This document shows positions 27,001 to 33,000 of a DNA stretch of 64,000 bases, one piece after another. Every line of letters starts with the position of its first letter. Position 1 is the first letter of the stretch. The stretch comes from Candidatus Bathyarchaeota archaeon (GTDB taxonomy: Archaea; Thermoproteota; Bathyarchaeia; Bathyarchaeales; Bathycorpusculaceae): the NCBI GenBank assembly GCA_963720565.1, contig CAVRFW010000005.1, positions 160,001-224,000 on the forward strand. The letters are read 5' to 3'. Made by a program: the position numbers.

Positions 27001-30000
27001 ATCTTGGTCAAGGCTCTAGAATTCATAGACAGCCCATCCCACCATTCAACTTATGCCGGGAGAAGCAGATATTAAATTTGCTGTCGCCAGAACGAATCAC
27101 CCTGTTTGCTGCTCCGAAACAAGTGGGTTTTAGTCGGCAGCGGCAAACCTCAAGAAACCCAAAATCTTCATTTTAAGCTTATTCTCGCTAAATATGGCTG
27201 AATAGCGCTTATTTTGGTGCGGGAGGTGGGATTTGAACCCACGAACGCCTACGCGATAGGGTCCTAAGCCCTACTCCTTTGACCAGACTTGGAGACCCCC
27301 GCCGCACGCTGTTTAGGAGGTGAGAATACGTTGGTGTCCTTTAATATTTGTTTAACTATCCCGAGAACCAAACCGCAAGCTCTTTATTTCAAATTGCAGT
27401 TTTGTTCTCAGAGCGTTAGTGATGCCTCGGTAGCCTAGCCCGGTGGGGCGTTACCTTGGTAAGGTAATGGTCGCGGGTCCAAATCCCGCTCGAGGCTCCA
27501 CTAAAATCTCCACTAAGACGAGACGTCATCGATTCTTCATTGATACTGGTGAAGTGTTCATTTTTTTCTGCAGGCAATTGCATCTGTTCAAGAGAAAGCG
27601 TGATTGCTTCTTTCTCTTAACTGTAAGTTGAACCATTGGTTTTTTTCCTTTCTGATATATTGCGGAAAAAGAAACTTGCCTTTTATTGGGTTACGACTTC
27701 TTTTTAGATTGTGGAATAGAAGGAGCGGTTTATGTGAGTCGCCTTGAGAAAAGATTAGCTACCCTGTTCGGTTTGCTTCTGAGTCCTTTGTATTTGCTTG
27801 AGGAAAGAGAGCGCAATGAAAGAATGCAGGAAAGAATTAACCGACTGGCACGAAAGACAAGCAATTTCGAAAGCTGAAGCATTCTTCTTTTCTTATCTCC
27901 AATCTTAGTTAACCAGCCAAGAAAGACTATTCTATGAGGTTTTGTCGTTTCTCACACATCAACTGCAGCGTATTGAACGACTATGTGCAAAATCGTGTTT
28001 AATGGCGATTAATCATCCATTATCTCCAGCATCGGCTGACCGCAGCAATCCGGATTTCTCTGTTGCTGACAGTTGTGAGAGTGCTTACAATCACAAGACT
28101 CGTAGTCATCTTCGATCTTTCTACCACATGTCTTGCACTGAAACGTCGGCATTCGTGTCCACCAAGAACACACTTTGAAAGGAGACATAAATATCTTCTA
28201 ACTGTAGTCCCAAAAAACCACGTAATACGCTTCTTTTCTATGAGAAAAGGGTGCTAAAATCGATTGTATTAATTTATATATATACCATAAGCAATGAAAT
28301 AAGGAGGATATCATGGCTCTCGTCAGTCTTGGCGACACTTTGTCAATCGTGGCGATAGTAATAACGGTGGTTATCGCCTGTGCAATTGTGATTTTTGCCA
28401 TGCGGAAGCATAGAGAAACCACAAAAAAGCCTAAGCAAGCTGAAAAAGAACCCGCCCTCACTGGGTTGCCATTCAAACTCTCCAAGAGTGTTCAGTCTTC
28501 CGATGCCTCAAGCGCAAAAGATGAACTCAGAATCTTGGAATTGGAGAGAGAAATTCTAAGTGACGCAATAAGACGGCTTTATGAAGCTCACGCGGAAGGC
28601 AAAATCAATGAGCAAGAGCGCGAAAGACTTGCGAGTTCCTACAAGAGTCGTATGATGACCGTGAAAGAATCCATGGCGAAGGACGAAACCGTTGTGGCTT
28701 TGCACGAACTTGAAAGCATGCAAGAAGACCTAATGAAGCTCTTCAGCGAACGCTTCGGCGACTTAAGCTCCAAAGTAGACGAGCTCCGGTCAAAAATTGA
28801 CGTCAAACCCATAAAGGAAATACCGGTAAAAATGCCCCCGCCCGAGGTTCAAATTCCCGAGCAGCTTGAAGTTGCTGAGGAGGAAGAAGAGGAAGAGACG
28901 GCGGAAGAAGGGGGAGAATCAAAACCCAAAAAGAAAAAGAAACCGCTGGCAGAAAGGACAAGCCGAAAAACCGAAGCTGAGAAGAGAATAGATGAGATAA
29001 GGAGCGAAGTAGAGAAGGTTTTAGACAAGCTGGGGCAAATGGAGATTGAAACCTGAAAAGGAACTAGTTGAGAGCCAGAAGAGAAATGCGGCTTTGGAAG
29101 CGGTCAAGCACGTTAAGGACCGATTTATAGTTGGTTTGGGTAGCGGAAGCACAGCCGCCTATGCGATAGAAGCAATAGGGGAAAGAATAAGGCGCGAGAA
29201 CCTGGTCCTGATGGCGGTGCCGACTTCATATCAAGCGTTCTTGTTGGCAGCCAAATGTGGCGTTCCCTTAACAACCCTTGAGGAACACCCGATAATCGAT
29301 TTGACAATTGATGGTGCTGACCAGATAGACCCGAAGCTAAACTTGATTAAAGGCATGGGCGCTGCATTAGCGAGAGAGAAAATAGTCGCTTCAATGTCAA
29401 GAAAAAACGTAATAATCGCCGATGAAAGCAAGAAAGTCAAATTTCTTGGCGAGAATAATCATCCGGTGCCGGTTGAAGTTCTGCCTTTTGCAATCACCGC
29501 TGTAAAACAGAAAATTGAGAAAATTGGGGGAAAAGCCGTTTTGAGAGAGGGGAACGGAAAGCTCGGACCGGTGATAACGGATAACGGAAATGCCCTCATA
29601 GAAGCGTTTTTCGGGGTAATAGACAATGCTGCAGACTTGGAAAAGAAAGTTAAGATGATTCCAGGCGTGATTGAAACTGGTTTGTTCGTCGGTTTATCAG
29701 ACACTGCATACGTGGGAACTGTTTCGTCCGTAGTCAGGATTGAGAAAAAAACAGATTAAAGCTGTGTTCCAAAACTATACCGAGATTCAGCATCATTTTT
29801 GTGTCGCTTACTGATTAGTCCTCCGAAACGCTTTTATCAGCGAAATAACGTCTTTTGAGCAAGGTTCGAAGCTACATGCTAAATCGTGAAAGTCAAAAGC
29901 AGAGTCATCATCGAATGTTTTCTAGCTTCGGATACTACTTTTATTATTATTTTTGCTGAGCCCAGAACCAAAAAAATTTCATGTTAAGGTTTCTGGGCGC

Positions 30001-33000
30001 AAGGATAGTTGATAATTAATGGAAAACAAAAAAATTGTGGTCAAGTTCGGGGGTTCATCTCTAGCCGATCATGAACGCTTACTGAAAGCTGTAACTGCGG
30101 TGGTTAATGAATCGCAGAAAGGTACGCAGATCGCTGTTGTCGTGTCGGCTATGGGCAAGACAACCGACACCCTGCTCAGCACTGCAAGAAACACAAGCAA
30201 TGGGAAACTCCAAAAACAAGAACTGGACGATATTCTGAGTATGGGTGAACGGACAAGCGTTCGCATTTTCGCCGCTGCATTGCGAAATAACGGCGCGGAC
30301 AGCTGCTACTTTGATCCAATGGATGAAAATTGGCCAATAATAACTGACGCAGCATTCTCCAACGCTAACCCGTTGTTAATGGAATGTAAGCGTAGAATTC
30401 GGGAAAACGTTTTGCCAGTCGTTGAGAAAGGCATTATTCCTGTGATAGCTGGTTTCGTCGGCAAGACTCAGGAAGGAAAGATTACCACGCTTGGCAGAGG
30501 TGGAAGCGACACAACTGCATTCATTATAGCAGAAGCACTTCACGCCGACGAAGTTGTCCTGGTGACAGATGCTGACGGAATAATGTCTGGTGACCCAAAA
30601 ATCATCACAGGGGCGAAACGTCTTGAGGCGATAGATGTGAGCACTCTTGTGGGTCTGGCTGATTCTGGGGCAAAGTTCGTCCACATTAAAGCCCTCAAAC
30701 ACAAACCTCCAGCCATAAATGTACGGGTAATCAACAGTCAACATGGGAACCTGTCGGAGCAAGGCACAATAATAACAGGCGGATTGTCCACTGAACTTGA
30801 CGTAAGCATGGCTTATTCCTCGCAAGTGGCCGAGATAACAGTTGTCGGCAACAACATTTCCGAAAACCCCCAGATTGTTCAGGAAATGATGGAGAAAACC
30901 AAGAAGCACAACGCGTTGTTAGGCCTGTCCATGAACCAGAACAGCATTATACTCTACCTCGCGGAAGTAGAAGCCACAAACCAACTCGTCAACGACATTC
31001 ATCAAACAGTACTTAAAAACAAGGAGAATATAGCAATGGCAGTTAAGAAGAACCTCGCCTACTTCCGAATCAGCGGAGTCGGATTAGAAGAAACACATGG
31101 CATAATAGGAAAAATTAGCGAAACCTTACGCCTCAACAACATAAACATTTCCGGAATACTCACAATTACATCCAGCATACTCATATTCGTAGATTGGAGC
31201 GAAAAAGAGAAAGTGCTTAACCTCATCAGAAACGCGCTCAAAACCCACTAACAACGGAGATGAAAAGAATGAACCAAGGAAAAACAAGAAGAATGAAACG
31301 CATAATGAACGAGGATCACTGCACGGTCATCGTTCCAATGGACCACGGGGTCACAATAGGACCCGTAAAAGGCATCGAAAACATGCAAACCATAGTCCAA
31401 CAACTTGTCAACGGCGGAGCCGACGCCATACTAGTCCACAAAGGCATCGCCAAACACGTCGACACAAAAGACTCAGGATTAATAGTTCAACTCTCTGCCT
31501 CCTCAAACTTGAGTTCAAATCCCAACACCAAAGTTCAAGTCTGCACCGTCAGAGAAGCCATCCGCCTGGGCGCAGATGCTGTGTCAGTACACATCAATGT
31601 TGGGGCGCAAGACGAAGACAAAATGCTTCAAACACTGGGTAAAGTTGCTAACGAATGTGACATCTACGGTATTCCACTCTTGGCAATGATGTATCCAAGA
31701 GGGCCGAAAATACAAGACGAACATGCCGTTGACGTGGTGGCGCATGCCGCTAGAATAGGTGCAGAACTTGGTGCAGACATTATCAAAGCAAACTACACAG
31801 GAAACATGGAAACATTCAGAAAGGTTGTCGAAAGCTGCCCAGTTCCAGTGGTTATTGCAGGCGGCCCCAAATCCAAGACAGCAAAAGAAATCCTGCAAAC
31901 GGCACACGAATCGCACAAGGCTGGAAGTGCTGGACTCTCGATTGGACGAAACGTGTTCCAACATGAAAACCCAACCCTGATGGTTAAAGCCCTCTGCGCT
32001 ATTGTTCATAGAGATGCTTCTGTTGAACAAGCTTTGAGAATCCTCGGTGAAAGCCATTGAAGGAACTCTGGCTTGAAATAGCTACAGGCGCCTCTCTTCC
32101 AGAAAAAGCAAGCCTCCTTAAACTTGCCTCTCAAAACTGCGACTTCATAATAGAAAACGAGACAGCGATTAGTCAACAAGGCAAAAGCAACATTACAATT
32201 CTAAAGGACTTAGACACCGCTGGAATCACCAAGCTGATGCGAGACGGAAAACAGTTTGCTCTTAGAATAACCATAGGCGGAAAAGAAGACGAGAACACAG
32301 CAGTCAAAGCAGCCGAACTACGAACAGACTACATCATAATCAACTGCCTTGATTGGCGTGTAATTCCCTTGGAAAACATAATTGCCCGAACACGCGGCAA
32401 AAGCAGACTAATCTCAGAAGCGACAAATGCGGAAGAAGCCAAACTCGTCTTGGAAACGCTGGAGTTAGGAACAGAAGGTGTCCTGCTTAAGACGTCCGAC
32501 CCTGAAGAGCTTACGAAAACTATCGCTACCGTCAAGAAGCAAAACCTCCAAGTTGAAATGACACCCGCCAAAATAACCACAATTAGGCAAATCAGCACTG
32601 GCGCACGAGTCTGCGTCGACACATGCGACATGATGGCACCTGGCGAAGGAATTTTGGTTGGTTGCCAATCAGCGGGTTTCTTTCTCGTAGAGGCAGAAGT
32701 GCACGAAAACCCCTACGTACAATCGCGGCCTTTCAGAGTCAATGCTGGCTCTCTATCCATGTATACTCTGGGACCTCAACAACAAACTCGTTATCTTTCA
32801 GAGCTGAAATCCGGTGACGAAGTCCTCATAGTCAACAGAAAAGGAGTTTTGAGGACAGCTAATGTCGGAAGAGCAAAAATCGAAATGAGGCCTCTAATTC
32901 TAATAGAAGCGGACGCTCAAGGTACAATGATAAAAACTATCCTACAAAACGCAGAAACCATTCGCTTGGTGACACCTGACAGTTCAAAGCCAGTGACAGA

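Follow-up and report, generated by a model that had tools for sequence, protein, structure and literature searches.

The aromatic amino acid operon in the window, the whole 64,000-nucleotide stretch of Candidatus Bathyarchaeota archaeon DNA analyzed here, is preceded by a short upstream open reading frame (uORF) ending in a run of Phe and Tyr codons, with a hairpin directly behind it (Table 1). Through these codons the ribosome very probably gauges charged tRNA-Phe and tRNA-Tyr. As the output we favor occlusion of the aspartokinase Shine-Dalgarno (SD) sequence combined with polarity, a complete reading to which we give slightly less than an even chance.

Table 1 Features of the leader region and the operon behind it (positions in the window)
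Feature	Position	Strand	Basis or remarks
BRE/TATA-like promoter	29823..29838	+	Sequence; conserved in the family alignment
P1 5' arm	29864..29874	+	Folds; directly before the leader ATG; partner 29923-29933
Leader uORF, 27 codons	29876..29959	+	ATG 29876, TGA 29959; variable N-terminal spacer, then aromatic block
Phe/Tyr codon block	29918..29953	+	9/12 codons; contains P1 3' arm 29923-29933
Hairpin P2	29960..29998	+	Arms 29960-29969 / 29988-29998; folds; begins at leader stop, ends just before SD
SD-like sequence of aspartokinase	30003..30013	+	Sequence
Aspartate kinase	30019..31251	+	First operon gene
ADH synthase, DHQ synthase II, aroD, aroE, archaeal aroK, aroA, aroC, chorismate mutase	31260..38169	+	
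Aminotransferase and prephenate dehydrogenase	38183..40135	+	

The uncalled 27-codon uORF reported by the initial annotation is indeed present, and the 12 open reading frames behind it are shikimate, chorismate, and Tyr genes, as had been proposed. Its promoter, whose BRE/TATA assignment and spacing follow the archaeal consensus, lies about 44 nt ahead of the leader ATG; transcription probably starts near 29858-29862, to judge from the sequence, leaving a short 5' UTR. In 56/62 loci the leader start is the first ATG downstream of such a box. Four contig sets from RNA runs, all of low share and one of them probably DNA, yielded neither transcript ends nor levels. The uORF ends in FSSFGYYFYYYFC, and codons 15 to 26 comprise four Phe and five Tyr codons and no Trp codon, so the "Phe/Tyr/Trp-rich" of the earlier description holds here for nine Phe/Tyr codons, while its Trp fits relatives only. 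Trp occurs within the last 12 codons of 14/67 leaders; in a hand tally with six loci left out, Trp codons were found in 12/49 leaders from trpA-positive genomes and in 1/12 from trpA-negative ones. Base pairing is predicted between the last codons of the block and the SD region, and the anti-SD was found at the 16S-type 3' motif of the host genome. The aspartokinase provides the archaeal route to dehydroquinate with its aspartate semialdehyde. The genes from ADH synthase to chorismate mutase overlap or are separated by gaps of ≤8 nt, and the prephenate dehydrogenase is split over two frames with a break near 39470. Stops seen in three ADH synthases turned out to be edge effects.

The leader is a conserved property of aspartokinases of the aromatic type. 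It is found in all 21 readable loci of the family, extending the 15/15 noted before, and in 46 of the 70 loci that could be read in an even sampling of the class, where presence in part of the class (13/20) had been claimed; in the other 24 its place is taken by a +1 slip cassette with Phe/Tyr codons, which is linked to aspartokinase by fusion or coupling. As previously stated for the lysine-type gene, it is absent from other-pathway aspartokinases (3/3) and from both paralogs in this genome. In the last ten codons of 67 leaders, each taken as the most aromatic uORF of its locus and from related genomes that are not independent, F/Y/W account for 451/670 in-frame codons; the two remaining frames give 91 and 57, and shuffling at most 252. 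The third positions of these codons vary between C and U. The last aromatic codon lies ≤3 codons from the stop in 67/67 leaders and at -1 or -2 in 61/67. A P value of 4e-8 for Phe/Tyr enrichment was not reproduced with our window and background; we obtained P = 2e-6, rank 3 of 3,945 uORFs, which after 82,845 tests is not significant on this genome alone. No further convincing leader or +1 cassette emerged from these 3,945 uORFs and 33 cassette candidates, in a search that covered genes of at least 150 codons. A loose DNA pattern run over the order gave too many chance matches, and Rfam riboswitches, T-boxes, and leader families gave no match at gathering score, with four weak matches all far below cut-off.

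Folding bears out the hairpin described at the leader stop, upstream of the SD. At this locus the whole leader has a z score of -2.83 (3/200 shuffles) and P2 alone -2.09; across loci z is ≤-2 in 65/74. P2 begins 0 to 7 nt from the leader stop in 73/73 folded loci and ends 1 to 9 nt ahead of the SD in 66/73. Its own arms pair at -18.6 kcal/mol versus -8.9 with arms of other families, meaning that pairing is kept across families despite unrelated sequences. The arms are biased, with a purine 5' arm and a U-rich 3' arm: A(5')-U(3') pairs number 271 versus 51 of the reverse orientation, against a background of 315/306. A U-tract of four or more follows P2 in 8/74 loci, one of five in a single locus, and none at this locus; hence P2 is not a pheL-type intrinsic terminator. 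The first helix, P1, folds as described, and its core pairs are kept in 33 family loci, but these form one subgroup, so that it is lineage-limited and not class-wide; it outscores 95% of other-family partners in only 28/74 loci, and its z score here is -1.75. The covariation mentioned earlier amounts to few two-sided changes inside the family. Thus, of the proposed leader-peptide attenuator, the ribosome-read aromatic sensor is well supported by conservation and by the swap for slip cassettes, while the classical layout is incomplete in both U-tract and P1.

How would such a leader govern aspartokinase? From its anatomy, conservation, fixed geometry, and arm bias we infer translation, stalling, SD control, and polarity as follows. 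P2 would be the permissive fold, positioned like segment 2:3 of bacterial attenuators. Under starvation, a ribosome stalled in the aromatic block would mask its U-rich codons and leave the P2 5' arm free, so that P2 forms and the SD opens. In fed cells, the ribosome would reach the stop, where it covers the 5' arm and sets the U-rich 3' arm free; once it has been released, the exposed U-rich codons would extend P2 across the SD, and P1, where present, would hinder reloading of the leader. Aspartokinase would then remain uninitiated, and coupling or polarity would silence the remaining operon. Modeled SD opening runs 4.05 without a ribosome, 1.77 with the A site at -4, and 3.49 with the ribosome at the stop (n = 74), and 6.7, 1.1, and 2.3 at this locus, where the last eight codons add 5.7 kcal/mol of SD occlusion versus 3.4 to 4.9 in controls. 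Speaking against this reading, the freed P2 3' arm makes only weak pairs with the SD here (z 0.21). A first model (n = 66) gave a mean drop from 6.84 to only 5.71, exceeding 1 kcal/mol in 30/66 loci.

Shuffled controls reproduce this U-shaped profile; across the loci, then, the sequences are not tuned for codon:SD pairing. Such pairing exceeds 1 kcal/mol in 45/74 loci, not above controls. The difference between stop and -4 is 1.74, versus 1.4 to 2.3 with permuted stems; that between no ribosome and -4 is 2.15, versus about 3.1 with codon shuffling and 2.8 with synonymous replacement. The own aromatic block scores 1.94 versus 2.5 to 2.8 in controls and surpasses cross-family blocks in only 33/74 loci. 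Mutually exclusive alternative hairpins can be discerned by eye in loci L220-L222, but controls match the modeled switch. We accordingly rejected sequence-tuned pairing of either the codons or the P2 arm with the SD. A ribosome stalled at the last aromatic codon, given its position at -1/-2, would also touch P2.

The same sensor could instead act on transcription termination, with P2 as an antiterminator, a possibility to which we give somewhat more than one chance in four. A ribosome at the stop would expose the U-rich loop, the 3' arm, or bare aromatic codons to FttA/aCPSF1 cleavage or oligo-U release, and one stalled upstream would let P2 form and hide these sites. The genome encodes FttA/aCPSF1, which, according to a structural report, favors U-rich RNA 30 to 36 nt from the 3' end (PMC11616081). 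The 3' half of the stop-to-SD gap is U-richer in 63/74 loci, a U4 tract lies between stop and SD in 35/43 family loci and within 53/67 aromatic blocks, and early termination of a 10-kb operon would presumably be cheaper. However, U4 tracts in the blocks do not exceed synonymous controls (80 versus 71 ± 5.5; 41/500), UUU is avoided for Phe preceding Phe (6/32), and families f26, f13, f28, f31, f57, and f53 lack U4 between stop and SD. Termination also needs no fixed distance between leader stop and aspartokinase start, yet this distance is 46 to 66 nt in 64/67 loci.

We regard two further readings as improbable. In a nascent-peptide sensor of the TnaC or arginine attenuator type, free Phe/Tyr would arrest the ribosome at the leader stop, keeping P2 open and the operon off. 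The stop at the base of P2 and the aromatic residues reaching -1/-2 would suit it, but the peptide is unconserved apart from interchangeable F/Y/W, with 4 to 10 aromatic codons in varying order, and the sister devices rely on single hungry-type codons. Equally hard to credit is a small aromatic membrane or signaling protein, or a U-rich run serving as the terminator of the upstream gene rpiA, with P2 a mere post-stop insulator of the RTS type. Archaeal terminators are U-rich; even so, upstream genes differ among loci, rpiA occurring only here, and the run is codon-periodic, lies behind its own promoter and ATG, is confined to the aromatic-type aspartokinase, and gives way in sister clades to a frameshift cassette. 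Bacteria often have hairpins behind their stop codons (PMC7518266), but only 147/1,625 genes of this genome have one of -10 or stronger. The least probable reading, +1 slippage at UUU-UAY by which the shifted ribosome would bypass the stop, melt P2, and reinitiate at aspartokinase, draws on the TTT TAT present here, on such slip sites in sister lineages, and on some hairpin loci where the +1 frame runs exactly to the first codon of aspartokinase. We rejected a frameshift at this locus because the +1 frame ends 34 nt before aspartokinase, neither fused nor coupled (Haloferax reinitiation reportedly fails at about 20 nt; PMC10666635), because UUU before Tyr (43/71) matches overall Phe usage (107/183), and because the end of the +1 frame is scattered across 67 loci, the extremes being 8 nt ahead of the leader stop and fusion, with the aspartokinase in random frame.

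In sister lineages the hairpin leader is replaced by a cassette consisting of an SD-like motif, NUU, and a Phe/Tyr codon, with the +1 frame fused to aspartokinase or ending at its start. Among 53 such loci, the +1 frame is fused in 38, coupled in 9, and otherwise placed in 5, and 1 was not caught. These sequences suggest that sister lineages control aspartokinase at translation through Phe/Tyr codons, by predicted slippage, and the swap lends independent support to ribosomal sensing. Overall, aromatic biosynthesis in Bathyarchaeia and neighboring classes is probably governed by sensors of tRNA charging that are read by the ribosome and act on one gene through either of two exchangeable outputs. 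One would be a Phe/Tyr leader with a hairpin, as at this locus. The other would be a +1 frameshift set off by starvation, whose modular units (SD-NUU followed by a Phe, Tyr, or Trp codon) either build aspartokinase as a fusion or bring ribosomes to its start. The trpE gene would carry the Trp version, and the designs would have been swapped at least twice on a quick aspartokinase tree.

Ribosome-read amino acid attenuation is a textbook bacterial device, and we found no described archaeal case in the literature searched, subscription papers and supplements lying outside it. TrpY of Methanothermobacter is a protein repressor whose gene, trpY, has a Trp codon in second position; it resembles our case in the suggested tRNA-charging input to archaeal aromatic regulation and differs in having neither leader peptide nor hairpin. 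Like the familiar E. coli pheL-pheA and trpL attenuators, the present locus has its leader stop at a hairpin foot and a 5' helix able to limit reinitiation, but it is archaeal, lacks a hairpin-plus-U-tract terminator, and would respond to two or three amino acids in front of the shared pathway that begins with aspartokinase. The sister loci and trpE follow the known geometry of the prfB frameshift, and likewise antizyme and ermCL frameshift induction (PMC5009743): an internal SD, an NUU P-site codon, and a slow A-site codon, with a predicted +1-frame product or a ribosome brought to the next start. They differ in being archaeal and in an A-site codon for Phe, Tyr, or Trp rather than a stop, a design that is not that of this locus. 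Incidental pheL frameshifts (PMC5009743) belong with the same group. One archaeal programmed frameshift, a -1 event in fucA1, is named in a 2021 review (PMC8211752).

The closest anatomical match is Ms5788A, an experimentally tested mycobacterial polycysteine sORF translational attenuator described in 10.1101/834739, whose scheme also places pheL and trpL as short cognate-codon-rich uORFs before cognate operons, as here. Both have their sensing codons close to the 3' end of a short ORF and lack an intrinsic terminator; distal genes follow by polarity there and would do so here. Pairing of the sensing codons with the SD behind them is predicted for this locus as well, but over the whole set of loci it does not exceed controls. 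The present leader differs in being archaeal, Phe/Tyr(/Trp)-based, and predicted from sequence, in probably having a short 5' UTR where the Ms5788A sORF is leaderless, and in a discrete stop-to-SD hairpin.

If the sister cassettes are real, amino acid starvation would be one more signal among the few known to be sensed by natural frameshifting, and the annotated starts of many aspartokinase and trpE genes would be wrong. To our knowledge, Rho is missing from Archaea and hairpin terminators are mostly missing too; a functioning case in this domain would therefore reveal regulatory use of transcription-translation coupling, SD control, or FttA. The 150-nt element lends itself to tests in a tractable archaeon. 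Such regulatory use is left as a hypothesis in the FttA structure paper (PMC11616081).

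The aspartokinase that opens the aromatic amino acid (aro) operon is preceded by a leader uORF whose codons 15 to 26 include 4 Phe and 5 Tyr codons; the initial annotation had called it rich in Phe, Tyr, and Trp, but the locus has no Trp codon. The leader stop lies 59 nt before the aspartokinase start, the fold of the whole leader beats 197 of 200 shuffled sequences, and an Rfam search of the leader region gave no fitting family. The operon runs from aspartokinase through ADH synthase, DHQ synthase II, aroD, aroE, aroK, aroA, and aroC to a 3' part with chorismate mutase, an aminotransferase, and a split prephenate dehydrogenase. 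This last gene (window positions 39262 to 40135) lies in two frames with a break near 39470, is unbroken in 6 of 6 relatives checked, and is either an assembly error or a pseudogene. Prephenate dehydratase, which many other families keep within their aro operon, here lies outside it on the opposite strand, at the end of a convergent ilvBH-leu run (window positions 40145 to 47624, minus strand). The close named relatives of this genome are Bathyarchaeia.

Features of the leader region, in window coordinates
Feature	Position	Strand	Basis
BRE/TATA-like box	29823-29838	+	sequence; match judged by the archaeal consensus
Helix P1, enclosing the leader ATG	29864-29874 pairs with 29923-29933	+	folding
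Leader uORF, 27 codons	29876-29959	+	sequence read
Hairpin P2, from leader stop to 4 nt before the SD-like sequence	29960-29969 pairs with 29988-29998	+	folding
Aspartokinase SD-like sequence	30003-30013	+	

A scan of uORFs ranked the leader 3rd of 3,945 in this genome (P = 2e-6), but amid 82,845 tests a single genome proves nothing, and the case rests on comparison. The top match of the scan, a Glu/Trp-rich 21-codon frame outside the window (contig C5, position 234190, plus strand), lies 135 nt upstream of a gene for a 596-aa protein that has a Cys cluster at its N terminus and may be ABCE1-like. Elsewhere in the assembly, an aspartokinase paralog matches as two pieces and a second beta-CASP homolog contains an internal TGA (C3:79766-80677 and C5:301934-303193); both may be assembly errors.

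Among 61 genomes of the family, 23 aro-type aspartokinase matches were found, 2 of them cut at contig ends, and all 21 readable loci carry the leader; none was found at 3 other-pathway aspartokinases of this sample or at both aspartokinase paralogs of the genome studied here. An even sample of 201 genomes of the class gave 72 matches (2 cut), 46 of the 70 readable loci having a leader and 24 lacking one, and these loci precede aro genes wherever enough downstream DNA exists. For 67 leaders pooled from the family, relative, and class searches, in-frame Phe, Tyr, and Trp codons make up 451 of the 670 last-ten codons, compared with 91 and 57 in the two remaining frames and a shuffle maximum of 252; the leader at each locus had been picked as the most aromatic uORF, and the sampled genomes are related. 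Third positions of the aromatic codons vary freely between C and U. In 56 of 62 loci, the leader start is the ATG that comes first downstream of a TATA-like box (5 others had no box call), a GTG or TTG start accounting for three of the misses. In other classes of the phylum, 18 loci read by eye comprised 11 aromatic leaders, 2 slip cassettes (described below), 4 with neither, and 1 cut. No leader was found at two further loci of the order, where ADH synthase occurs without aspartokinase. At L205, a family locus whose operon begins with ADH synthase, there is a leader-like uORF in which the aromatic codons toward the end are Tyr and Trp alone, and a hairpin follows it.

RNA structure was compared at 74 loci, namely 65 of the 67 leader loci (L030 and L085, with unsure starts, were omitted) and 9 outside the class. 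P2 reaches z ≤ -2 in 65 of the 74 and begins 0 to 7 nt from the leader stop; in 66 of 73 its end falls 1 to 9 nt short of the SD. Pairing of its own arms scores -18.6, versus -8.9 with arms from other families. Two-sided changes are few inside the family, so P2 covariation is at the family level. Its A-U pairs place A 5' and U 3' in 271 cases versus 51 in reverse (background, 315/306), a bias that holds in most families, not all. P1 holds up well in 33 family loci and recurs with different sequences in some families, but in just 28 of the 74 loci does it outscore partners from other families; of the two helices annotated as conserved, P2 is upheld, and P1 is supported for one subgroup of the family but not class-wide. 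L231 and L232 have aromatic leaders without a post-stop hairpin; by eye, they contain an internal inverted repeat, and its 5' arm complements the SD of aspartokinase. The GC-rich leaders L220 to L222 show, by eye, four segments: the end of the leader pairs, across the stop, with the 5' arm of P2, whose 3' arm can form a UUCG-type hairpin over the SD. They are the best candidates for structure probing.

At each of the 24 leaderless class loci, a promoter and a start are followed by an SD-like motif, a short spacer, NUU, and then a Phe or Tyr codon; this slip cassette is proposed as a +1 frameshift site. From the slip site, the +1 frame runs open into aspartokinase in families f20 and f29. In families f11 and f25 and at a single f20 locus, it remains open over 35 to 62 codons, ending at or near the aspartokinase start, and the leader frame itself stops early. 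An enlarged set of 53 cassettes from class loci, deeper sampling, and two outside loci (L058-L066, L070, part of L080-L102, L104-L139, L233, and L234) comprised 38 fused, 9 coupled, 5 other, and 1 not caught; of the 5, three reflect an upstream site taken by the script, one an anchor failure, and one ends 14 nt past the start. At the fused loci, an in-frame GTG made by the SD-like motif itself could serve as the start; L233 lacks an in-frame start. A single genus of f29 carries three modules of 5 codons, which end in Phe, Tyr, and Trp. In a quick tree with a provisional root, f20/f29 kinases are sister to the clade of our locus (pair support, 96) within leader-type lineages, and the f11/f25/f48/f60 group falls outside. 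For our locus, +1 slippage is rejected as the design on frame and codon usage checks.

The trp operon follows the same logic as these cassettes. At 17 of 19 trp loci read (L140-L159), a 6-codon frame ends in NUU-UGG with TrpE in the +1 frame, and 9 of them have no in-frame start at all. The 18-nt trpE slip pattern was found in 83 of 301 genomes of the class and its reversed control in 3; of 30 fetched matches (L160-L189), 27 yield TrpE in full, and in 18 no start lies within 30 codons. Most trp promoters of L140-L159 have, by eye, TGTAC-type inverted repeats upstream of the TATA box, which resemble the TrpY box, suggesting that trp control could combine a repressor with a frameshift. In the genome studied here (88.8% complete), trpA and trpE gave no match and the leader lacks a Trp codon; a same-genus genome has both genes, and the same-genus pair L092/L088 differs likewise in trp genes and leader Trp codon. 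Over all loci tallied, a Trp codon stands in 12 of 49 leaders from trpA-positive genomes and in 1 of 12 from trpA-negative ones; any link between the two is tentative.

The leader is real and conserved, and it is very probably a ribosome-read gauge of Phe and Tyr. The strongest reason to infer a sensor of tRNA charging is that two unrelated designs put Phe/Tyr codons before the same gene. For the output, SD opening was modeled at the 74 loci by folding with a ribosome mask, giving 4.05 with no ribosome, 1.77 when the A-site is four codons short of the stop, and 3.49 when the ribosome has reached the stop (6.7, 1.1, and 2.3 at our locus), a modeled profile with the right logic for SD control. 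SD effects equal to or larger than the native ones came from controls in which stems were permuted, codons were shuffled or recoded, or blocks were taken from other families, so composition and geometry account for the SD model, which has no proof from sequence tuning; the native block exceeds controls in some loci only, ours among them. SD control with coupling or polarity is the leading reading of the output, nearly as apt to hold as to fail. Termination by FttA or at oligo-U, with P2 as antiterminator, is the less likely alternative: FttA is encoded in this genome and, according to PMC11616081, wants U-rich RNA 30 to 36 nt from the 3' end, but U-tracts in the leader block are not enriched over synonymous controls and are absent from the stop-to-SD gap in several families.

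In outline, the leader would work like bacterial leader-peptide attenuators. A U4 tract follows P2 in only 8 of 74 loci, so there is no bacterial-type terminator; the proposed attenuator keeps its probable sensor but lacks the terminator of pheL/trpL. Translational attenuators are the closest known class, and the modeled SD logic matches the anatomy of the experimentally tested mycobacterial Ms5788A (10.1101/834739). The comparison also drew on PMC8211752, PMC5009743, PMC13675443, PMC13681488, PMC10450193, PMC8116511, PMC12612679, 10.1101/538918, PMC10666635, and PMC7518266. Our literature search, with subscription papers (including older comparative-genomics work on attenuators) outside its scope, turned up neither a leader-peptide attenuator nor a frameshift that senses amino acids in any archaeon; the supplements to PMC3711429 could include frameshifts of this kind. 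The general attenuator principle is already known from bacteria; what this locus adds, judging from sequence, is a very probable ribosome-read Phe/Tyr gauge in an archaeon.
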